Origin: a virus
Lineage: Duplodnaviria > Heunggongvirae > Uroviricota > Caudoviricetes
Virus record (IMG/VR): IMGVR_UViG_2574180275_000003
Length of the DNA: 28,980 nucleotides
Direction: 5' to 3' (one strand)
Every line of letters begins with the position of its first letter. Position 1 is the stretch's first letter. Shown here piece by piece: positions 166-22,478 of this stretch. Both the position numbers and the translations under genes were made by a program. The notes beneath the pieces were generated by a model. The model was not told the origin of the DNA. It did not search any database and worked only from the letters and a program-made list of their open reading frames with translations.

Positions 166-516
166 ATGCCATCACGAATCCCACGCGCCTGCCGTAAGCG
201 TGGATGTGCAGGTACAACCACAGACAGTTCTGGTTACTGCGATAAACATCGTGGCGAAGGATGGGTACAGCATCAACGCGGACTGAGCCGCCACCAGCGT
301 GGCTATGGCTCGAAATGGGATGCCATACGTGCGCGCATACTGAAGCGTGATAATCATCTGTGTCAGAACTGCCTGCGCAATGGGAGAGCCGTTGAAGCCA
401 GAACTGTGGACCACATCATTCCGAAAGCTCATGGTGGCACGGATGCAGACAGTAACCTGCAGAGTCTGTGCTGGCCCTGTCATAAAGCAAAAACAGCGCG
501 CGAACGCATCAATTGA
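166..516 (+). CDS. HNH endonuclease, phage packaging-associated
   Basis: 116 aa with Cys pairs and the motif DHIIPKAHGG...LCWPCH; GAGGT RBS 6 nt upstream of ATG; sits directly upstream of terS/terL as in HK97-like cos phages. Confidence 0.85.
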   Translation: MPSRIPRACRKRGCAGTTTDSSGYCDKHRGEGWVQHQRGLSRHQRGYGSKWDAIRARILKRDNHLCQNCLRNGRAVEARTVDHIIPKAHGGTDADSNLQSLCWPCHKAKTARERIN

Positions 517-664: not shown

Positions 665-1147
665 ATGTCAGGACCTCCGAAAACCCCGCCACGCCTGCAT
701 TTGATTCGAGGCAACCCCTCAAAGCGCCCCGTTAAAGACCACAAAAAAACCGCTAAAAAGGATGAAAAAGGTCTTCCTAAAATTCCGCAGCATTTAGGGG
801 CTCAGGGGAAGTACTGGTTCAGGCGAATGGCGGAAGAGCTGAATGCGGAAGGGATCATTTCTCAGCTTGATGCGCGTGCGCTCGAGTTGCTGGTGGAAGC
901 CTACACCGAATATCGGCATCACTGCGAAACACTCGATGTTGAGGGGTATACCTACCGCACGGAAACGCAGAGCGGTGATGTACTGATTAAGGCGCACCCC
1001 GCGGCGGCAATGAAAGCGGATGCCTGGAAGCGGATCCGGGCAATGCTTGCAGAGTTTGGTATGTCACCGGCAAGCCGGGCTAAAGTAAATATCGCCGGAC
1101 CGGATGATGTTGATCCGCTGGCGGAGCTTTTAAAAGCGAGAGACTGA
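665..1147 (+). CDS. terminase small subunit (P27-like family)
   Basis: 160 aa starting MSGPPKTPPRLHLIRGNPSKRP; stop overlaps the terL start (TGATG); paralogous to the second terS at 15038-15394. Confidence 0.8.
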   Translation: MSGPPKTPPRLHLIRGNPSKRPVKDHKKTAKKDEKGLPKIPQHLGAQGKYWFRRMAEELNAEGIISQLDARALELLVEAYTEYRHHCETLDVEGYTYRTETQSGDVLIKAHPAAAMKADAWKRIRAMLAEFGMSPASRAKVNIAGPDDVDPLAELLKARD

Positions 1148-2340
1148 TGGCAAAAGTGGCTGACGGGATCCGCTACGCCGAACGTGTTGTTGCAGGAGAA
1201 ATTGTTGCTGGCGAATTTGTCCGCCTGGCCTGCCAGCGTTTTCTTGATGATCTGAAGTACGGCGAAGAGCGGGGGATTTATTTCAGTGAACCCCGTGCGC
1301 AGCACATCCTGAATTTCTACAAATTTGTGCCTCATGTAAAAGGGGCGCTGGCAGGCCAGCCCATTGAGTTGATGGACTGGCATGTATTTATCCTCATTAA
1401 TATTTTTGGTTTTGTCATTCCGCTGGTCAATGAAGAGACCGGGGAAGTTGTCATGCGCAGCGATGGCAGCGGACGTCCGGTGATGGTGCGCCGGTTCCGG
1501 ACGGCGTACAACGAAGTCGCCCGTAAAAACGCAAAATCAACTCTGTCATCGGGTATCGGCCTGTATATGACGGGGGCAGATGGTGAAGGCGGAGCTGAGG
1601 TGTATTCAGCCGCAACCACGCGTGACCAGGCCAGAATCGTGTTTGAAGACGCCAAAAATATGGTCAGAAAAGCCCGGTCGACACTCGGGCGGTTGTTTGA
1701 TTTCAACAAGCTGGCGATTTACCAGGAGCAGAGCGCATCAAAATTTGAACCGCTTTCTTCGGATGCAAACAACCTGGATGGTCTGAACATCCACTGCGCC
1801 ATTATTGATGAGCTGCATGCACATAAAACTCGTGACGTGTGGGACGTTCTGGAAACGGCAACCGGTGCCCGTCTGCAGTCCCTTTTATTTGGTATCACCA
1901 CGGCAGGGTTTAACAAGGAAGGGATTTGTTACGAGCAGCGTGATTACGCCATCAAGGTATTGCGTGGCTATAACAGCGACGTGGAGGGCGCGGTAAAAGA
2001 CGACTCCTACTTTGCGATTATTTACACCCTCGATGAGGGAGATGATCCGTTTGATGAAACGGTCTGGCAGAAAGCGAATCCCGGCCTGGGCATCTGTAAA
2101 CGCTGGGATGATCTGCGTCGCCTGGCGAAAAAAGCGAAAGAACAGGTCTCTGCGCGGGTGAATTTTTTTACCAAGAAAGTAACATCACGCCGTAACAACA
2201 GTGCGACCTGTCCTGATTTTTTTAGTAACCAAATGAAAGAAAAAGATTTTTTCTTGTTCGTCGTTTTTGTTTTTTCTGGATGGTTCTGGCTGTTTTCATC
2301 ATTTGTGTATTGCACTGTGTATTGCAAAAACGGGTTATAA
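1147..2340 (+). CDS. terminase large subunit, N-terminal portion; ORF interrupted near 2172-2175 by the integrated element, last ~55 codons are read-through into element DNA
   Basis: Residues 1-342 align with the N-terminal half of the intact TerL at 15378-17039 (PHVKGALAGQPIEL / PHVKGAMRGSPIEL, ARKNAKST / PRKNAKST, RDQARIVFEDAK / RDQARIVFDDAR). After ...ARVNFFTK the translation becomes low-complexity (FLFVVFVFSGWFWLF) and the matching C-terminal half is found at 17561-18292. Confidence 0.8.
   Translation: MAKVADGIRYAERVVAGEIVAGEFVRLACQRFLDDLKYGEERGIYFSEPRAQHILNFYKFVPHVKGALAGQPIELMDWHVFILINIFGFVIPLVNEETGEVVMRSDGSGRPVMVRRFRTAYNEVARKNAKSTLSSGIGLYMTGADGEGGAEVYSAATTRDQARIVFEDAKNMVRKARSTLGRLFDFNKLAIYQEQSASKFEPLSSDANNLDGLNIHCAIIDELHAHKTRDVWDVLETATGARLQSLLFGITTAGFNKEGICYEQRDYAIKVLRGYNSDVEGAVKDDSYFAIIYTLDEGDDPFDETVWQKANPGLGICKRWDDLRRLAKKAKEQVSARVNFFTKKVTSRRNNSATCPDFFSNQMKEKDFFLFVVFVFSGWFWLFSSFVYCTVYCKNGL
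2168..2174. repeat. attL core (TTACCAA), left junction of the element
   Basis: Same 7-mer recurs at 17556-17562; in both copies ACC falls in the same terL codon phase (2170-2172 and 17558-17560). Confidence 0.6.
2305..2325 (+). promoter_or_regulatory. integrase arm-type binding repeats (left end)
   Basis: Tandem GTGTATTGCACTGTGTATTGC about 130 bp inside the left core and 20 bp upstream of int; near-identical copy at 17460-17480. Confidence 0.5.
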
Positions 2341-2345
2341 ATCAC

Positions 2346-3554
2346 ATGGCGCTAAACAAACTGAGCGATAAAAAACTTCGTTCCCTGCTTGGGCGCAGGA
2401 GTGAGAGGCAGGAAACCATCGCTGATGGTAACGGGCTTTCGGTACGGGTCAGTAAATACGGATGTGTTAGTTTTGTTTTCTTTTACAGACTGGCGGGAAG
2501 GGGAACCGCGCCCATCTGGCTGACACTTGGAAAATATCCTGATCTGAGTCTCAAATCAGCGAGAGAGATGCGCGATCAGTGTCGAACCTGGCTTGCGGAG
2601 GGCAGAGATCCACGGATTCAGATAAAAATTGAACGGGAAGCCACCTTGCAACCTGTTACCGTTCGTGAGGCACTTGAATACTGGCTTGATAATTATGCAA
2701 TGGATAAGCGTAGGGGAGCAGAACATATCAGGCAGTGCTTTGGTAAACATATTTATCCGGTGATTGGTCATGTACCACTTAGTGATTGCTCTATATCTAT
2801 GTGGATCAAGTGTTTTGACAAAATAAAAAAAGTAGCACCTGTACAGGCCGGAGCTTTGTTGCGTATATCAAAACAGGCGCTTAAATTTTGTAGGGTAAGA
2901 AAATACGCGATTAGTCATGAAATTGATGATCTTGAGGTCTGTGATGTGGGAAAAAAGTCTGCGCGAAGAAGCAGGGTTTTAACAGATGATGAAATCAGAG
3001 ATTTATGGCGAAGTATTAATACTGATTATGACAATCACGAATTATCATATGAAAACCGAATTATTTTACGTTTCCTGGTAGTTTTTGGTTGTCGACTGTC
3101 AGAAGTATTACTGTCGTCCTGGGTAGAGTGGGATTTTGATAAGAAATTATGGCGCGTTCCCGCTGATCATAGCAAAAATGGCAGGGAAATAATCAGACCG
3201 ATTCCTGATGGCATGTTTAACTGGTTAGTTACGTTAAAAAAAATAACAGGTAACAAAGAAAATGTGATTGGGTTTGATATGCGTCAGTGTACGGCAAGCG
3301 TAACTATCGGTAAGACATGGAAAAGGATGAAACACTCGGAAAAATGGACGGCGCATGATATGCGAAGAGTGTTTGCCACAAAGCTAAGTGATCATGGTTT
3401 TGAACATAATGTGGTTGAACAGTTGCTTGGGCACACATTAGGCGGTGTTGCCGGGGTTTATAACAGAAGTCAGTATATGGACAGAAAAAAAGAAGCTATG
3501 AACTGGTGGTACGACTATCTGAATAAGCTAATTAGTGGTGACGGTAATGATTGA
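2346..3554 (+). CDS. int: tyrosine site-specific integrase, P4-like with N-terminal arm-binding domain
   Basis: Start taken at internal ATG 2346 (MALNKLSDKKLRSLLG...), the usual integrase N-terminus; C-terminus has HDMRR...LLGHTLGGVAGVYNRSQY (catalytic His/Arg/Tyr). The track ORF starts at 2280 inside the att region. Confidence 0.9.
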   Translation: MALNKLSDKKLRSLLGRRSERQETIADGNGLSVRVSKYGCVSFVFFYRLAGRGTAPIWLTLGKYPDLSLKSAREMRDQCRTWLAEGRDPRIQIKIEREATLQPVTVREALEYWLDNYAMDKRRGAEHIRQCFGKHIYPVIGHVPLSDCSISMWIKCFDKIKKVAPVQAGALLRISKQALKFCRVRKYAISHEIDDLEVCDVGKKSARRSRVLTDDEIRDLWRSINTDYDNHELSYENRIILRFLVVFGCRLSEVLLSSWVEWDFDKKLWRVPADHSKNGREIIRPIPDGMFNWLVTLKKITGNKENVIGFDMRQCTASVTIGKTWKRMKHSEKWTAHDMRRVFATKLSDHGFEHNVVEQLLGHTLGGVAGVYNRSQYMDRKKEAMNWWYDYLNKLISGDGND

Positions 3555-3768
3555 AATAGTTACGCGTGAAGAACTTGAAAATGATAAAACAATCGACAGG
3601 ATGATTAAGGAAGATGAATGTGCATGGTTAACAGCTCTTGGCAGGAGACACAGAGCATTACTTGAAAAGGAAGGAAAATTTCCACGGAAAATATGTATTG
3701 GCCCACAAACAAAAGTCTGGCGCTTATCTGAGGTGCTGGAATGGGTAAAGGGTGAATGGAAACCCTGA
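3547..3768 (+). CDS. alpA: AlpA-family transcriptional regulator / excisionase-like protein
   Basis: About 73 aa with ...LLEKEGKFPRKICIGPQTKVWRLSEVLEWV, the AlpA/Xis HTH pattern; start overlaps the int stop; followed by a terminator. Confidence 0.65.
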   Translation: MIEIVTREELENDKTIDRMIKEDECAWLTALGRRHRALLEKEGKFPRKICIGPQTKVWRLSEVLEWVKGEWKP

Positions 3769-3791
3769 ACTAAATTAAATGAGATATAATC

Positions 3792-3817
3792 AACCCGTCT
3801 TTTGGCGGGTTTTTTTA
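3792..3817 (+). terminator. Rho-independent terminator-like hairpin after alpA
   Basis: AACCCG-(8 nt loop)-CGGGTT followed by a T7 run. Confidence 0.5.
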
Positions 3818-3831
3818 TAGGTGATATTTTT

Positions 3832-4110
3832 ATGCAAAAATTTATTTATCCTACACCCGAAGAACGCATTCAGATTCTGAAAGATCATGGCGAACCGTAT
3901 GATCGCCGTATACGCGAACATGAGTGTGCCAATCGTACCGGGCTTTCAAGAAGCAGACGTTGGGTACTTGAACAGGAGGGAGCATTTCCTGCTCGTGCTC
4001 ATTTAGGGAAAGTGTCTGTTTCCTGGTTGCTCTCTGATGTGCTCTGGTGGGTTATGCATCCGCCAGGAGTAAAGGAAGTAAACAGCCCATACAAAAACGC
4101 CAATAAGTAA
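3832..4110 (+). CDS. second AlpA-like HTH regulator
   Basis: 92 aa from ATG 3832 (GGTGA RBS 7 nt upstream); contains TGLSRSRRWVLEQEGAFPARAHLGKVSVSWLLSDVLWWV, resembling the AlpA HTH region. Confidence 0.5.
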   Translation: MQKFIYPTPEERIQILKDHGEPYDRRIREHECANRTGLSRSRRWVLEQEGAFPARAHLGKVSVSWLLSDVLWWVMHPPGVKEVNSPYKNANK

Positions 4111-4118
4111 TTACCGAC

Positions 4119-4148
4119 AACCCCGCACCACGCAATGCGGGGTTTTTT
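4119..4148 (+). terminator. Rho-independent terminator-like hairpin
   Basis: AACCCCGCA-(7 nt)-TGCGGGGTT followed by TTTTTTG. Confidence 0.55.
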
Positions 4149-4167
4149 GTATGTGAGGTAGAAAGTG

Positions 4168-4746
4168 ATGAATAAAAATATTGCCGTGACGGGCAAGGGT
4201 GACGCACGTCATGTGAAAAAATTCTGTGATATTCGTGATCTGGTCGTTCTGCGCTTTGATGGCGTGGATGTTCGTGTGGTGTATCTAAACGGCGATCCGT
4301 GGTTTGTTGCAAAGGATGTTTGTGCTGCGCTGGAACTGACCAATTCGCGTACGGCGTTGCAGATGCTTGATGATGACGAAAAGGGAGTAAATTTAACTTA
4401 CACCCCCGGAGGAAATCAGAATATGAGCATTATCTCCGAGTCAGGTTTCTACAAACTAATAGCCCGCAGCCGCAAAGCAACGACGCCTGGCACATTTGCT
4501 CATCGTTTCAGTAACTGGGTATTCAGAAATGTGATACCGGGTATCAGAAAAACGGGGGCTTATGGTATCCCGTGGGGCGCATTACAGGATTTTTCCCGCC
4601 GCAAAGAGCAATACCAGATAAGTGCCAGTGAGAAGGGGAGGGAGCTACAGGCATGTAAGCGCAAAAAGCGTGAGCTGGAGGAAGAAGAAAAAAGGCTGAT
4701 ACGTGAATACCAGCCTGAGTTTTACTTTGGTGAGCGTATTCAGTAA
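4168..4746 (+). CDS. Bro-N domain protein (antirepressor-like)
   Basis: 192 aa; N-terminal RFDGVDVRVVYLNGDPWFVAKDVCAALEL...ISESGFYKLIARSRK matches the Bro-N pattern; GAGGTAG RBS 6 nt upstream of ATG 4168. Confidence 0.7.
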   Translation: MNKNIAVTGKGDARHVKKFCDIRDLVVLRFDGVDVRVVYLNGDPWFVAKDVCAALELTNSRTALQMLDDDEKGVNLTYTPGGNQNMSIISESGFYKLIARSRKATTPGTFAHRFSNWVFRNVIPGIRKTGAYGIPWGALQDFSRRKEQYQISASEKGRELQACKRKKRELEEEEKRLIREYQPEFYFGERIQ

Positions 4747-5032
4747 CCACACGCGGTGTTGATTATACGGTACATCGTGTTGACCGGGAAGCTACCCACC
4801 AGCAAGGCAAAATCTTCTGCTAAAAAATGACATATGGCCAGTCGTCCGGAAAGCATGAAATTTTACAAAAATGGAAAATGAAGATTTTTATTGTGCTGGT
4901 GGGTAAAAACAAAAAGCGCCCCGTTGCCGGAGCGCCCTTGCGAACAATTAACCTACTGCGCAAAAAATGAATCTGTGCGGGGGAATTATATCAACCGCGT
5001 GGAGAAGCGCCACAATTGCCGAATAACAGGCA

Positions 5033-5061
5033 AAACAAAGGCCACCCGCTACGGTGGCCCT
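5033..5061 (-). terminator. terminator-like hairpin for leftward transcription
   Basis: Perfect inverted repeat GGCCACC-cgctac-GGTGGCC at 5042-5061; on the minus strand it is followed by TTTGTTTTG. Confidence 0.4.
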
Positions 5062-5098
5062 TCAACACAAGCTACACGTTATCCCCAACGCATGAGCA

Positions 5099-5311
5099 TT
5101 ACCGACAATGCCACATTTGCGGCTGGTGGGCAATGTGATCAGTCAGATTTGGTTCGTTCCAAGGTTTGCAACGAGAGCTTTTCCTGTGCTCTTTAAGGAA
5201 TTGCTCAAGGGCAAAAGCACATGGCGCGAATCTTTCTGATTCATGCTCTATCTTTCTGCGCCGTCTTTTCCGTGTCGGTGATAATGTTTTGGTCAATTCT
5301 TTATCGGTCAT
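5099..5311 (-). CDS. hypothetical small basic protein (start at MTDKE...)
   Basis: 70 codons with AGGA 7 nt upstream of the ATG at 5311-5309; lies between the Arc-like gene and the minus-strand hairpin. No family recognised. Confidence 0.3.
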   Translation of the reverse strand: MTDKELTKTLSPTRKRRRRKIEHESERFAPCAFALEQFLKEHRKSSRCKPWNEPNLTDHIAHQPQMWHCR

Positions 5312-5368
5312 TGTGTTGTCCTGCATAGCAATGCGCCGTAATACCTTACACCACGGCGCTGGTGATGG

Positions 5369-5674
5369 TTATTCCTGCTCTTTGGCCTTGCGACGCTGGA
5401 GTTCTTCACGTGCGACGGTGACGAGCTGCCCGATCTCCTCGACAGCTTTGACTCCGATTTTTTCCACCTGCGCCAGCGCATCGAGCGAAGAAACCAGGGG
5501 ATTTTCTCCGCTTCCTTCTGCCTGGCGGCGGGCGATCTCACCGCGTACAGCCGTAACTATAAAATTCGCTTTAGTTTCCCCTGGCTGTAGGGATGCCTCA
5601 ATGCCACTCACTACTTCATGTGGAAATCTGGCATTCAGTTGCTGTGATTTATTGTTAACAGAACTCGTGGACAT
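5369..5674 (-). CDS. Arc/MetJ-type ribbon-helix-helix DNA-binding protein (candidate repressor of the element)
   Basis: Start at internal ATG 5674-5672 with GGAGGTG RBS; N-terminus ...QQLNARFPHEVVSGIEASL resembles the Arc beta-strand motif (FNLRWPREV); divergent from the rightward replication operon. Confidence 0.55.
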   Translation of the reverse strand: MSTSSVNNKSQQLNARFPHEVVSGIEASLQPGETKANFIVTAVRGEIARRQAEGSGENPLVSSLDALAQVEKIGVKAVEEIGQLVTVAREELQRRKAKEQE

Positions 5675-5717
5675 GTTTGCACCTCCGATTAATAACGGGA
5701 TGCAGTGTAATACAAAA

Positions 5718-5772
5718 GTGAATACCAAAAAAGACTTGAAATGGTATTCACCAAAATGTAATCTGAATACCA
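5718..5772. promoter_or_regulatory. operator-like inverted repeats in the divergent promoter region
   Basis: GTGAATACCA (5718-5727) and its reverse complement TGGTATTCAC (5742-5751), plus a third half-site TGAATACCA (5764-5772), 45-100 bp upstream of the Arc-like start. Confidence 0.45.
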
Positions 5773-5873
5773 CAAGGGCTGATACATGCAATTCAGCAAT
5801 TGAAACGACGAAGCCCCGCACTGTTGGAGCAGTAACGGGGCTTCTAACCAAACCGTTAACTGGAGTAACGATT

Positions 5874-6074
5874 ATGGCTGTAAGACAGCATACCCCACGA
5901 CTTGCGCACACACAAACGGTCTTTGTGTGGCGTTTTCTGGCACTAAGTGCCGGAGAATCTCAAATCGTCCACGTAACCGCCTGGACGGAACGCGAAGCGC
6001 GTAACCGTTGCCCGTCCGGTTGTGTCGCTGTATTCGCCGCCCGTATTCGTCAGGGGGTGCGCCATGTGCAATAA
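5874..6074 (+). CDS. Icd-like small protein (host cell division inhibitor-like family of P4-type elements)
   Basis: 66 aa from ATG 5874 (GGAG about 8 nt upstream): MAVRQHTPRLAHTQTVFVWRFLAL...TAWTEREARNRCPSGCVAVFAARI, matching my memory of Icd-like proteins. It is the 3' end of the long track ORF 5166-6074, whose 5' part is antisense to the Arc-like gene. Confidence 0.45.
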   Translation: MAVRQHTPRLAHTQTVFVWRFLALSAGESQIVHVTAWTEREARNRCPSGCVAVFAARIRQGVRHVQ

Positions 6075-6303
6075 AAACACGCCGGACGCAGCCGCCGAAG
6101 CCATCAAAACGCTAATGCACGCGCTGATTGATATTTCATGCACGGCAGCAACCGCAGAAAAACACATTACCAGAGAGCCGGAATATACAGGGGCGATAAT
6201 CCCGCATTCACTGGCATACGCACAGCTTACCGCTGATATGGCACTGAATGAGGCCAGGGCTATCCTGATTGCTGATTGTGAAAATGGGGGGGGTTATGCG
6301 TGA
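6064..6303 (+). CDS. hypothetical protein
   Basis: 79 aa from ATG 6064 (AGGGGGTG upstream); overlaps neighbours on both sides, suggesting operon coupling. Confidence 0.4.
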   Translation: MCNKNTPDAAAEAIKTLMHALIDISCTAATAEKHITREPEYTGAIIPHSLAYAQLTADMALNEARAILIADCENGGGYA

Positions 6304-6529
6304 TGATCGTTTTAATGCCCTGAAACAGGAATTTGATGGCGCACCGGAACATACAGGCGATGCGTTGTTATGCGTTGCCGACATGATGAAAGCCGCATTT
6401 TTTCTTATCAGTACCAGTGGCTACAGGTCAGAGGGTGTGGAGATTCTCAATATTGCGTCGGACTATGCGGAATATGTTGCAGAGGCGCGTTACAGAAGAA
6501 AATTCCCGGAGGATGTAAGCCATGGATAA
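6296..6529 (+). CDS. hypothetical protein
   Basis: 77 aa from ATG 6296 preceded by a G7 run; overlaps the previous stop. Confidence 0.4.
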   Translation: MRDDRFNALKQEFDGAPEHTGDALLCVADMMKAAFFLISTSGYRSEGVEILNIASDYAEYVAEARYRRKFPEDVSHG

Positions 6530-6665
6530 AATCCCTTTCGATGTTCTTATTCATTCTGAGAATGCATTAATCAGGGCGCTTGAATTAAAAACGGTACTGG
6601 ATGAATTAACCGAAAATAACACCGAGCGGGGGGGTATTTACTTTCTGCTTTCAGCACTCTGTTAA
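6522..6665 (+). CDS. hypothetical small protein (47 aa)
   Basis: ATG 6522 with GGAGGA 9 nt upstream, overlapping the previous stop; MDKIPFDVLIHSENALIRALELKTVLDELTENNTERGGIYFLLSALC. Below the ORF track size cutoff. Confidence 0.25.
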   Translation: MDKIPFDVLIHSENALIRALELKTVLDELTENNTERGGIYFLLSALC

Positions 6666-6735
6666 CCCCGGTTATTGATGAATTAAACGCGGTTATGGAA
6701 ATGCACGACAAGACCCGCGCAGAGGAATAAAAACC

Positions 6736-7050
6736 ATGAAAAAGAAAAATTCTGGCTTTACTGCCAGCGGCCTCCCTCGGCCTGAAATCCGCCCCGACGA
6801 TATTTTCAAAGATAAATACGGCGGACGAATAACGATAAAAACCGTTGACGATTTTCGCGTGACTTATATCCGCGAAGGTTATGCGCATCCCTGCGTGTCG
6901 TCTCATATGCGTTTTGAGAGTGAATTCACCCTGGTAAGCAAAGCACCACCAGCGAACTTAAGCGACATCGACAGAATCATGCGCGTTACAGGTATGGAAC
7001 GCATTAAGGCAGTACGTGAAATTATTCGTGAACGGGGAAAGGCAAAATGA
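6736..7050 (+). CDS. hypothetical protein (possibly DUF4222-like), coupled to the primase gene
   Basis: 104 aa; GAGGAA RBS 8 nt upstream; stop overlaps the primase start (ATGA). Family call is a tentative recollection. Confidence 0.45.
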   Translation: MKKKNSGFTASGLPRPEIRPDDIFKDKYGGRITIKTVDDFRVTYIREGYAHPCVSSHMRFESEFTLVSKAPPANLSDIDRIMRVTGMERIKAVREIIRERGKAK

Positions 7051-15394: not shown

Positions 15395-17039
15395 GTACGC
15401 AGAAGGCGTAAAAAACGGCAAAATTACGGCCTGTAAACGACTGAAACAGGCCGTTAAACGGTATTTTTCTGACCTTGAAAACCCCCTTTACACGTTCGAT
15501 CCGGAGGTCGTGGAGCGGTTTATTGCCTTTTCCAGGGTGTGTCCGCACGTAAAAGGCGCAATGCGCGGTAGCCCCATTGAGCTGGAGCCGTGGCAGCAGT
15601 TCGCCTTTGCGTGCATCCTGGGCTTTAAGGTTAAGGCCACCGGACGGCGCAAATACACCAGCGCATTCATTGAAGTGCCGCGAAAAAATGCCAAATCCAC
15701 GGTCGCCGCTATCCTGGCTAACTGGTTTCTGGTTATGGAAAACGGGCAGCAGGATATTTACACCGCCGCCGTGAGTCGTGATCAGGCGCGGATCGTGTTT
15801 GATGATGCGCGTCAGATGTGCCTTTTATCCCGACCGTTGCGAAAGCGGGTAAATATTCAGGCACACAAGGTGATACACCCGAAAACCAACAGCCTGTTAA
15901 AGCCACTGGCAGCAAAAGCGGCAACCATTGAAGGTACAAACCCGAGTCTTGCCATTGTGGATGAATATCACCTGCACCCTGACAACGGGGTTTATTCCGC
16001 GCTTGAACTGGGAATGGGGGCGCGTCCGGAGGGGTTATTATTTGCCATCACCACATCGGGGAGCAACGTTGTTTCAGCCTGTAAACAACACTACGACTAT
16101 TGCTGCCAGATACTGGATGGTGAAGAGGTGAACGAATCCATGTTCGTGCTGATTTACGAGCTGGATGATGAAAGCGAGGTTGACGATCCGGCGATGTGGA
16201 TAAAGGCGAATCCCAATATCGATGTTTCCGTCGATCGTGAAAAACTGGCCTCAACCATCCAGAAAGCGCGGGGTATTCCGTCGCAGTGGGTGGAAATGCT
16301 CACCAAGCGATTCAATATCTGGTGTCAGGGGGCCACGCCGTGGATGGGTAACGGTGCATGGGCGGAGTGCGCCGGAACGTTCGCGGAGGCGGATTTATAC
16401 GGGCAGGAGTGCTACGCGGGGCTGGACTTATCATCAACCAGCGATATTTCCAGCGTGTGCTATGCCTTTCCGGTCGGTAAAAAGATTATGCTGGTTTCCC
16501 GTCACTATCTGCCGGAATTTCAGCTACAGAACCCCGCCAATAAAAACCGCGCCATCTATCGCCAGTGGGTAAAGGCGGGCTGGATACGCACAACACCGGG
16601 TGACTGCATTGATTATGACCGTATCCGTGATGACATCATGGCGGATGCAGAGAATTTCAATATCAGGCTGGTGGGTTTCGATACATGGAACGCCACGCAC
16701 CTGAGGACGCAGCTACAGGGCGCAGGATTTGAGGTGGAGCCGTTCCCGCAAACATACCTTCGTTTCAGTCCGGCGGCGAAATCGTTCGAAGTTTTTGTTA
16801 ACCGGAAGGTGATTGTGCATCGTGGTGATCCGGTGCTGGCCTGGTCAATGAGTAATGTTGTGATGCAGAGTGACGCGAACGCCAATATCAAGCCGAACAA
16901 GAAAAAATCATCCAACAAGATAGACCCGAGCGTTGCGGCGCTGATGGCGTTTGGCACATTCCAGGCAGAACATGAGGAATTTGCATTCGATATGAGCGAC
17001 AGCCACAAAGAGCGGCTTGCGACGTTTGATGGTGTGTAA
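15378..17039 (+). CDS. terminase large subunit (intact)
   Basis: 553 aa; apparent TTG start at 15378 with GAGGAAGAGGA upstream, overlapping the terS 3' end; aligns across its whole length with the two prophage terL fragments. Confidence 0.9.
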   Translation: MTAWHEYAEGVKNGKITACKRLKQAVKRYFSDLENPLYTFDPEVVERFIAFSRVCPHVKGAMRGSPIELEPWQQFAFACILGFKVKATGRRKYTSAFIEVPRKNAKSTVAAILANWFLVMENGQQDIYTAAVSRDQARIVFDDARQMCLLSRPLRKRVNIQAHKVIHPKTNSLLKPLAAKAATIEGTNPSLAIVDEYHLHPDNGVYSALELGMGARPEGLLFAITTSGSNVVSACKQHYDYCCQILDGEEVNESMFVLIYELDDESEVDDPAMWIKANPNIDVSVDREKLASTIQKARGIPSQWVEMLTKRFNIWCQGATPWMGNGAWAECAGTFAEADLYGQECYAGLDLSSTSDISSVCYAFPVGKKIMLVSRHYLPEFQLQNPANKNRAIYRQWVKAGWIRTTPGDCIDYDRIRDDIMADAENFNIRLVGFDTWNATHLRTQLQGAGFEVEPFPQTYLRFSPAAKSFEVFVNRKVIVHRGDPVLAWSMSNVVMQSDANANIKPNKKKSSNKIDPSVAALMAFGTFQAEHEEFAFDMSDSHKERLATFDGV

Positions 17040-17120
17040 CGGAATGGATGAGAGAGGACAATGCTCATTTAATGGAATAAATTTTCAGTATTATCGGCAC
17101 CCACTTTCAGGGATGTTTTT

Positions 17121-17272
17121 GCGGGTTATTTGAGGACGGGGGCGGGTTATTTTGAATGTCTTGCGGGTTATATTCTGGCTGATATCTAGATACGTTGTTT
17201 TTTAACGCATTGATATTAAAGAGTAAAAAATACTTAGCACGCGAAGATAACCCGCTAACCCGCATAACCCGC
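17121..17272. repeat. iteron cluster 2 (same 9-mer as cluster 1), candidate second cis-acting replication site
   Basis: GCGGGTTAT at 17121, 17142 and 17163 (21-bp spacing), AT-rich spacer, then ATAACCCGC / TAACCCGC / ATAACCCGC contiguous at 17247-17272. Confidence 0.6.
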
Positions 17273-17459
17273 ACTGTTTTGTATATATATACGAAAAATT
17301 GCATTCAGGGGGGGGATCGAAATTTCTACTGCCTCTTATCTCTTTGAGTGCTCACCTCGTCAGATTGTTACACACAAGAAATAAAAAATGCTTCGCGATG
17401 GTAGGTCGAATCACTGTATCAAAAAACGGTGTGTATCAGCATTAAAACAATACAGATAC

Positions 17460-17480
17460 GTGTATTGCGCTGTGTATTGC
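17460..17480 (+). promoter_or_regulatory. integrase arm-type binding repeats (right end)
   Basis: GTGTATTGCGCTGTGTATTGC, same motif and orientation as 2305-2325, about 75 bp inside the right core. Confidence 0.5.
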
Positions 17481-17555
17481 TTGATGATTTATAAAGACTG
17501 TTTTTTCATGTTAAACGATTGATATACAGGTGATTTTAAAAAACTTGAAATATTC

Positions 17556-17562
17556 TTACCAA
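17556..17562. repeat. attR core (TTACCAA), right junction of the element
   Basis: Identical to 2168-2174; the downstream codons AAA CAC ATG AAT GTG continue the terL frame. Confidence 0.6.
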
Positions 17563-17566
17563 ACAC

Positions 17567-18292
17567 ATGAATGTGTGGGTAACAGCAGAGTCTGCCTGGA
17601 TGGACATGATTAAGTGGGATAAGTGCGAATACATTGCCCCACGACATGAGCTGAAAACGTATCCCATGTGGGTCGGCGTTGACCTTGCTCATAAGATTGA
17701 TATCTGTGCGGCGGCAAAACTCTGGCGAACGGATAACGGGCATGTTCATGCCGATTTTAAATTCTGGCTTCCGGAAGGACGGCTGGAACGATGCTCGCGG
17801 CAGCAGGCAGAACTTTACCGGAAGTGGGCGGAGATGGATAAGCTGATTCTGACGGATGGTGATGTTATCGATCATGCTCAGATAAAAAGTGACTTACTGG
17901 AATGGATTGGTGGTGAAAACCTCAGGGAACTGGGATTTGACCCGTGGAGCGCGATGCAGTTCAGCCTGGCACTGGCTGAAGAAGGGATACCGCTGGTGGA
18001 GGTTCCGCAGACGGTTCGCAATCTGTCAGAGGCCATGAAGGAAACGGAATCACTGGTCTATGCCGGGCGTTTCCATCACAGCAATCATCCGGTCATGAAC
18101 TGGATGATGTCTAACGTTACGGTAAAACCGGACAAAAACGACAATATCTTCCCGAATAAATCCACGCTGGAAGCCAAAATCGACGGCCCTGTTGCGATGT
18201 TTACAGCAATGAGCCGGATGCTGGTCAATGGTGGTGAACCGGAGCTGGATCTGTCTGAACATCTGGTCAGCGTGGGCATCCGCTCGCTTTAA
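17567..18292 (+). CDS. terminase large subunit, C-terminal portion (nuclease domain); frame is open from the att core at 17558
   Basis: Aligns with the C-terminal half of the satellite TerL ([16 protein letters not shown] / KRFNIWCQGATPWMGN onward); together with 1147-2172 it makes one ORF of about 585 codons. Confidence 0.8.
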
Positions 18293-22139: not shown

Positions 22140-22478
22140 ATGCAGGCAGGAAGATTACGTGATCGTGTGGTTATTCTGAATGCCACCACCGTTCGGTCTC
22201 CATCAGGGCACCCTGTGGAAACAATGACGGAAGGGGCAACCATATGGGCAGAAGTTAAGGGGATCAGTGGCAGGGAGAGAATATCCGGAGGCGCAGAAAC
22301 TGCTCAGGCTACAGTGAGGGTCTGGATGAGATTCCGGCGAGATGTGACAGCAACTTCATGTCTGAAAGTGCTGACTGGCGCATTCAAAGGCGCGATTCTG
22401 AGTATAGACGGTCCGCCGATACCGGATGCCCGTGCCACCCGGCTTGAGATACTCTGTTCTCAGAAGGGGAATGTGTGA
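22140..22478 (+). CDS. head-tail adaptor / head closure protein
   Basis: 112 aa; GGAGGA RBS; close paralog of the satellite protein at 13678-14016. Confidence 0.7.
   Translation: MQAGRLRDRVVILNATTVRSPSGHPVETMTEGATIWAEVKGISGRERISGGAETAQATVRVWMRFRRDVTATSCLKVLTGAFKGAILSIDGPPIPDARATRLEILCSQKGNV

Follow-up and report, generated by a model that had tools for sequence, protein, structure and literature searches.

The replication origins of SaPIs and PICIs are defined by at least two iterons on each side of an A+T-rich centre, with the two sets running in opposite directions (PMC9371898, PMC6092414), and they are described as one iteron/A+T-rich unit immediately 3' of rep (PMC6092414, PMC9371898). 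SaPI Rep initiators, among them the SaPIbov1 Rep to which DUF927 has been linked (PMC7581432), read these iterons with a C-terminal winged helix (PMC9371898, PMC7581432) and are thought to load as two hexamers that flank the A+T-rich centre (PMC9371898). In the cf-PICI papers that we searched there is no mention of iterons or of an origin, and the cf-PICI, PICI and helper-embedded-PICI literature searched describes either no origin or just one, situated 3' of the replication gene, with no second or displaced module. A different arrangement is found in phage P4, for which we used the annotated GenBank record (NC_001609). There, crr (4291-4590), annotated as 'cis required region for replication', lies beside the alpha gene (4636-6969) and near attP, and ori (9086-9809), which carries the same type-1 repeats, lies 4.7 kb away. 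Here we describe an E. coli satellite that carries two iteron modules, one of them in the position expected of a PICI origin and the other at the far end of the element.

The window, by which we mean the whole 28,980-nt stretch of DNA that was analysed and whose numbering is used throughout, is an E. coli lambdoid prophage in which terL is split by a 15.4-kb capsid-forming PICI (cf-PICI; Table 1). After int and its neighbouring regulators the island encodes a BRO-N protein, an Icd-like protein, a DUF4222 protein and a DUF927-type rep, which is followed directly by the first iteron module, M1. Beyond M1 come ssb, perC, an HK97-type head module (capsid, protease, portal, head-closure and connector genes), HNH, terS, terL and the second module, M2, which starts 82 bp past the stop codon of the island terL and 7,953 bp past that of rep, and lies approximately 8 kb from M1. 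These boundaries bear out the initial annotation, which had located the second array between terL and attR. When the prophage flanks (2100-2174 and 17563-17640) are joined, they are 100% identical to the uninterrupted terL of many E. coli genomes; the reconstructed empty site is present in 309 records with at least 80% coverage, and 34 of the 5,426 complete E. coli genomes carry the identical island-prophage junction. A tRNA search of the window returned no tRNA genes, which indicates that the island is not tRNA-targeted. The gene content is that reported for cf-PICIs (10.1101/2022.09.08.507074), and satellites embedded in prophage late genes are an already described class, the helper-embedded PICIs (PMC10111431), so the context of the island is notable but known.

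Table 1. Positions of island, prophage and origin features within the 28,980-nt window.
Feature	Position	Strand	Remarks
Prophage HNH	166-516		
Prophage terS	665-1147		
Prophage terL, ATPase part	from 1147		
attL core	2168-2174		TTACCAA
Island	2175-17562		Co-oriented with prophage terL; delimited by att cores
Island int	2280-3554		ORF; next to excisionase-like regulators
rep	7047-9167	+	706 aa; DUF927 helicase-type initiator; Pfam DUF927 E 2e-46
M1	9191-9313		24 bp past rep stop codon
Island HNH-terS intergenic region	14916-15036	+	Canonical HK97-like cos position; intact
Island terL	15378-17039	+	Pfam TerL_ATPase and TerL_nuclease; RefSeq annotation of near-identical locus L001
M2 left arm	17121-17171	+	Three GCGGGTTAT iterons, at 17121, 17142 and 17163
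M2 spacer	17172-17246		A+T-rich; 75 bp; 32% G+C
M2 right arm	17247-17272	-	Three abutting inverted iterons: ATAACCCGC (17247-17255), CTAACCCGC (17255-17263; 8/9 match), ATAACCCGC (17264-17272)
TA box	17277-17298		Near-palindromic, TTTTGTATATATATACGAAAAA; 4 nt past last M2 iteron
cos-like sequence	17299-17405	+	M2-linked in split-type islands; from alignment; degenerate core block in window copy
Integrase arm-type sites (probable)	17460-17480	+	GTGTATTGC, two copies; repeat family D16
attR core	17556-17562		TTACCAA
Prophage terL, nuclease part	17567-18292		Followed by portal, protease, capsid and tail genes

Several further features of the island were observed outside the two modules. The repeat GTGTATTGCrCTGTGTATTGC occurs upstream of int (2305-2325) and again at 17460-17480, approximately 130 bp and 100 bp from the att core, respectively; from their position flanking the core, these repeats are probably integrase arm-type binding sites. 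Three copies of (A/G)(T/G)TTGTTC with 10-bp spacing (10450-10477) lie past a terminator-like hairpin and upstream of the island capsid gene, where they may form the operator of a late, perhaps PerC-type, promoter. In the head-closure genes, island positions 13764-13863 and prophage positions 22226-22325 are 76% identical over 100 nt, consistent with head modules that are homologous but diverged.

The 9-bp iteron GCGGGTTAT has exactly ten exact copies in the 29 kb, all of them within M1 or M2, against approximately 0.2 expected by arithmetic. With up to one mismatch allowed, the window holds 30 matches compared to 5.4 +/- 2.4 expected, and none of 100 shuffles reached 30. M2 is built from three forward iterons at 21-bp spacing, which places them on one face of the helix, followed by an A+T-rich spacer and three reverse iterons. 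This is the organization given in the initial annotation, save that the reverse set, said there to be three contiguous copies of the 9-mer, does run back to back but has a middle copy that matches at only eight of nine positions. M1 comprises two abutting forward iterons, a 43-bp spacer (30% G+C) and four reverse iterons spaced by 11, 21 and 21 bp. The order abutting-spacer-phased in M1 is thus reversed to phased-spacer-abutting in M2, making the latter a mirror-like counterpart of the former, as had been proposed. A comparison of the two modules outside their iterons revealed no homology, and the matches found were of iteron length alone.

M2 has further features of an origin. The TA box found three to four nt past the last M2 iteron has the consensus TTTTGyWTATATATA(C/G)rAAAA and is recognisable in nearly all of the 23 related loci displayed, regardless of their iteron sequence, with L020 giving a poor match; it could serve in unwinding, bind a host factor or belong to a promoter. 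Duplex stability calculations rank 17212-17231, within the M2 spacer, as the second least stable 20-mer in the 29 kb and the TA box as the fourth, and the M1 spacer ranks sixth at 40 bp, making the M2 spacer a candidate unwinding region. The spacer additionally contains a minus-strand match to the IHF consensus, TATCAATGCGTTA, at 17203-17215. To describe conservation we used eight E. coli copies of M2 and scored their identity to the copy in the window. The iterons are 92-100% conserved (right arm, 92%) and the 15 nt past the last iteron 96%, compared to 45% for the first inter-iteron gap and approximately 50% for the flanks; within the spacer, the left half is 51% and the right half, which includes the IHF match, 86% conserved.

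In the window as a whole, the IHF consensus WATCAANNNNTTR has just three matches, with approximately one expected by chance: one in the HNH-terS/cos spacer of the prophage (639-651), the one in the M2 spacer and one in the presumed attP arm (17512-17524). Two other candidate features at M2 were considered and set aside. Repeat D17 (10482-10503 and 17172-17193), taken up as a possible recombination scar, amounts to just a 12-nt exact match (E 0.73) that we attribute to chance, and a minus-strand ORF of 65 aa (17107-17304) has no Pfam match and corresponds to no RefSeq gene in the near-identical locus L001.

The initiator encoded by the island is, as judged from its sequence, a DUF927 helicase of the SaPI-Rep/Cch type. 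In addition to the Pfam assignment, it matches the structures of a 'Pathogenicity island protein' (PDB 8tch, E 6.5e-14) and of Cch (5dgk, E 2e-3). Natural variation among related islands points to the part of Rep that would recognise the iterons. In L025 and L005, Rep is 90-100% identical to that of the window over residues 121-560 but only approximately 40% identical over the last approximately 110 residues, and in both loci M1 and M2 alike carry CTTGTCCCA instead of GCGGGTTAT, with the spacing rules unchanged and with the 130 bp past M2 still 74-80% identical to the window. The window and the EDL933 island share the same iteron and have Rep C-termini that are 89% identical, compared to 37% identity for the DUF4222 protein, 44% for the Rep N-terminus, 55% for PerC and 72% for SSB; the window and L025 have different iterons and Rep C-termini that are 34% identical, compared to 88% for SSB. 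Iteron type thus tracks the last approximately 110 residues of Rep alone, and not the DUF4222 protein, SSB, PerC or the Rep N-terminus. We therefore infer that these residues (approximately nt 8835-9164) form the iteron-reading domain, for which a single-sequence AlphaFold model of residues 560-706, built to look for a winged helix, had a pLDDT of 38, too low to be of use. The initial annotation predicted that one initiator serves both arrays, and this is well supported by the finding that the iteron changes in both together and in step with the Rep C-terminus. On the strength of this co-variation, it is highly likely that Rep binds M2.

The same alignments (rep 7047-9167 against L025 4424-6559 and L002 14662-16794) show Rep to be mosaic. 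Its N-terminal approximately 120 residues (39-44% identical) and its C-terminal approximately 110 residues vary independently around a core, residues approximately 121-560, that is 90-100% identical, which suggests that modules are exchanged by recombination.

To place the two modules in a wider context, we collected 20 loci of other Enterobacterales by means of the Rep protein together with further E. coli loci, and mapped iterons in all of them. The resulting 25 related islands come from E. coli, E. albertii, Serratia, Rahnella, Pantoea, Citrobacter, Yersinia and others. M1 lies directly after rep in every locus, and the architectures of M1 and M2 are kept although the iterons themselves are lineage-specific, with seven types across the 25 loci (GCGGGTTA, GTGGGTTA, CGTGGTTC, GTTGGTTC, TGGGATAA, TGGGACAA and CCGGTTCA); the M2 iteron is always that of its own M1. 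What varies is the distance between the modules, which ranges from 0.05 to 10.6 kb. Fifteen loci (L002, L006-L011, L014-L016, L018, L020, L021, L024 and L030) carry M1 and M2 in tandem after rep, with M2 within approximately 0.4 kb of rep. A further 11, which include the window, its near-twin L001, L003, L004, L005, L017, L019, L022, L025 and L027-L029, are split. M2 is then 2.2-10.6 kb downstream, as measured in loci other than L027-L029, which are short stretches that show M2 apart from rep and M1 and adjoining the right-hand junction of the island. In split loci M2 is the last recognisable island feature before that junction (attR), and it keeps a constant orientation across at least six different integration sites, which include prophage terL, yifB, dinD, yejO/tRNA-Pro and the tRNA-Ile/mug region. 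The split state, in which the cargo from ssb to terL lies between M1 and M2, is consequently not the basic design, since in most relatives, EcCIEDL933 included, the two modules abut as a composite origin of approximately 300 bp.

Two loci depart from this scheme. In L013, the 10 kb on either side contained M1 alone, so that M2 may be dispensable or not universally needed, and in L012, a short contig, only M1 was seen. Separately, L015 (Yersinia pekkanenii) has three origin-like iteron clusters (7152-7419, 11734-12001 and 12915-13212), two of which have an identical pattern 4.6 kb apart, and its Rep match is stretched over 2.9 kb; the replication region of this locus could have undergone a duplication or an insertion.

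How, then, does M2 compare with the described systems? Its iteron layout, three forward copies, a 75-bp spacer and three reverse copies, is that of a SaPI/PICI origin, and the initiator is likewise shared: by DUF927 and the 8tch and 5dgk matches, Rep is a self-loading helicase of the same SaPI-Rep/Cch kind that acts at the Rep-ori of SaPIbov1- and SaPI1-type SaPIs and of the Gram-negative PICIs (Fillol-Salom et al. 2018; PMC7581432), and the C-terminal mode of iteron reading, deduced here from co-variation of the iteron with the island's own Rep, is also the same. Opposed iteron sets flank an A+T-rich region in both, and M1 sits immediately 3' of rep, where M2 does not. The differences are that SaPIs and PICIs have one module, whereas here there are two, the second of which can be 2-10 kb away from rep, at the element's far end; that beyond its iteron-flanked spacer M2 has a TA box, near-palindromic and conserved; and that its 9-bp iterons are phased at 21 bp on one arm and abutting on the other. 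Among cf-PICIs, EcCIEDL933 (Alqurainy et al., 10.1101/2022.09.08.507074) matches the island in its gene order between rep and terL, in the family of its Rep and in its GCGGGTTAT iteron, and its M2 is 78% identical to 17142-17291 of the window. In that island, however, M1 and M2 are adjacent after rep (L002 16818-17131), other content follows terL, and the element is chromosomal, beside roxA with phoQ beyond the far end, whereas the island in the window occupies a prophage gene. The helper-embedded PICIs (Mageeney et al. 2023, PMC10111431) have their own replication gene and origin, and the target gene here is terL; that work deals with integration sites and integrases and describes no second iteron module.

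The initial annotation likened the two arrays to ori and crr of P4. With respect to layout the comparison is apt: both elements are E. coli phage satellites in which the same short repeat, in both orientations, forms two separate clusters. One of these directly follows the 3' end of the initiator gene and the other is kilobases away, and one of the two is close to attP. It does not extend to the initiator. P4 alpha belongs to another helicase family, the best BLASTP match between Rep and alpha has an E value of 0.02 over 54 residues, with no domain-level match, and because the initiators are unrelated the island is not a member of the P4 system. The separated state also alternates with an abutting state in the family studied here, unlike in P4. 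The likeness therefore holds as analogy and not as homology.

Taken together, these findings make it very probable that M2 is bound by Rep as a module of a bipartite SaPI-type origin, with a presumptive role in initiation. More specifically, the reading that we favour, with moderate confidence, is that M2 (17121-17272, or to 17298 with the TA box) is one of the two modules of a bipartite cf-PICI origin that is here split. What we observe directly is the repeat structure of M2, how it is conserved, how it co-varies with M1 and the Rep C-terminus, and that the modules occur in tandem and split arrangements; Rep binding, melting and a requirement for M2 in replication are what we infer from them, and a positive role for M2 in initiation is, on these grounds, probable. 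In the mechanism that we envisage, the C-terminal domain of Rep would read the iterons of M1 and M2, and after induction the inverted iteron sets of M2 would be where Rep hexamers assemble, possibly assisted by IHF bending of the spacer. The hexamers would then open the M2 spacer, the adjoining TA box or both, and load as helicase, with M2 either providing another site of initiation or pairing in cis with M1 via Rep-Rep contacts. Besides the lack of M2 in L013, several considerations weigh against this reading. M2 is not immediately 3' of rep, the place defined for PICI origins. The TA box lies outside the iteron-flanked spacer and is followed 15-30 nt later by a gene start in 9 of the 15 tandem loci, so that selection on M2 could be partly transcriptional. 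Another consideration comes from iteron plasmids, in which a second iteron cluster can be a negative control element.

A bolder version of the bipartite-origin reading can be formulated, in which the origin is obligately two-part and its halves work across 2-10 kb by Rep pairing, convergent with P4 ori/crr. The split halves would then bracket an exchangeable cargo (ssb to terL), and M2, the TA box and cos together would form a portable replication-packaging cassette. We put this version forward tentatively and consider it doubtful; if true, it could explain the shuffling of cargoes and Rep specificities among islands.

Of the alternatives that deny M2 a positive role in initiation, the one that best withstands the evidence is a negative control locus, either a sink that titrates Rep or a site for 'handcuffing' M1 to limit initiation, in the manner of the extra iteron clusters that serve as control loci in iteron plasmids such as P1 (incA) and R6K. 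A regulatory sink was also raised in the initial annotation, and it would accommodate the identity of the M2 and origin iterons, the location of M2 outside the canonical origin position and the variable distance to M1 (0.05-10.6 kb). The anatomy of M2 speaks against it. An incA-like locus is a plain array served by a RepA-type initiator, whereas M2 has the full set of origin features, namely inverted iteron sets, an unstable spacer, the TA box and an IHF consensus match, and Rep is a self-loading helicase and not a dimer/monomer initiator of the RepA type. Moreover, satellites replicate in a post-induction burst, in which a limit on copy number would presumably be of no obvious use. Nothing in our analysis favours a sink, and we regard a negative control function as unlikely.

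M2 could instead be chiefly a Rep-dependent operator or promoter for rightward transcription, in which its three abutting iterons and the TA box would act as the control elements, driving the orf-ssb operon in tandem islands and reading through cos/attP toward int in the circular form of split islands. The TA box lends this idea some substance, in that its spacing from the last iteron is constant in nearly all loci and it is followed within approximately 15-30 nt by a ribosome-binding site and ATG in those nine tandem loci; in the circularised split island, the next rightward gene is int, approximately 460 bp on. Yet a sigma-70 and terminator scan of 16900-17650 detected neither a plus-strand promoter nor a terminator, its one find being a promoter-like site on the minus strand near attR. 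Within a (TA)n run, a -10 hexamer that has A at position 2 cannot also have T at position 6. The TA box is, furthermore, near-palindromic, and conservation extends to the phased left-arm iterons and to the spacer, neither of which would be required in a simple operator. Rfam gave no family match around M2 or elsewhere in the window, its sole match being a chance snoRNA (E 0.91). An operator or promoter in place of an origin module thus also seems improbable.

A third possibility, a role of the array in packaging, was suggested in the initial annotation and takes the form that the iterons are accessory sites of a cos packaging signal. PICIs are known with cos near this end, sometimes with two (PMC6092414, PMC10111431), and a cos-like sequence does follow M2 directly. 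In split islands the post-M2 sequence is homologous to the HNH-terS intergenic region of the island (14916-15036) and can be aligned with the corresponding spacers in cf-PICIs and in the prophage (CAGrGGGGG ... CGCCTCsTCAAATTTTT). In HK97, TerS binds next to terS, 15 bp downstream of the cos cut (10.1101/2023.07.17.549218). An nhmmer profile built from the post-M2 regions of six other islands matched the window at 17275-17405 (E 8.5e-27), the HNH-terS region of the island at 14972-15016 (E 1.9e-4) and, weakly, the prophage spacer (E 0.22); the reverse profile gave no match to the post-M2 copy of the window. That copy lacks the best-conserved block and may be decaying, with the island having its own site, so that of the two cos-like sites in the island one may be functional and the other in decay. 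There is a precedent for a PICI with two cos sites (PMC6092414). None of this extends to the iterons. The array has no similarity to the cos regions of the group, its iterons co-vary with the Rep C-terminus and not with terminase, M2 adjoins rep in tandem islands, far from any cos-like sequence, and the same M2 is present in split islands without annotated head or terminase genes (L004 and L025). Since, in addition, the copy that follows M2 in the window is degenerate and the island retains an intact site at the canonical HNH-terS position, we conclude that the iterons are not a packaging signal and that an accessory function in packaging is very unlikely. Post-M2 cos-like sequence is present also in L003 (12190-12330), L004 and L025 (9005-9140). 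At the right end of EcCIEDL933 (L002 25390-25800), several repeats of approximately 100 bp that contain GGCGCGGTAACTKGYTGATATT lie between the last island gene and the chromosomal junction, the place where split-type islands carry M2 and the cos-like sequence.

Finally, that M2 is an inert relic of recombination or of a lost tandem island, as the rearrangement implied by the split and tandem states and the lack of M2 in the relative L013 might suggest, is highly improbable given iterons that remain intact while the flanks diverge to approximately 50%, an iteron that fits the resident Rep across three specificity groups and at least six integration sites, no remnant of rep or M1 beside M2, and a junction kept in 34 complete E. 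coli genomes.

Under the bipartite-origin reading, this PICI family possesses a conserved second origin unit that can be located at the opposite end of the element. Should M2 prove necessary for initiation, the minimal-replicon constructs and the annotation rules for these satellites would be incomplete, and the replication specificity of co-resident islands would be set by two loci plus the Rep C-terminus. The family would then also provide a natural series, from modules that abut to modules 10 kb apart, for the use of distant sites by a self-loading helicase, in a group of elements, the cf-PICIs, that is of wide current interest as agents of cross-species gene transfer.
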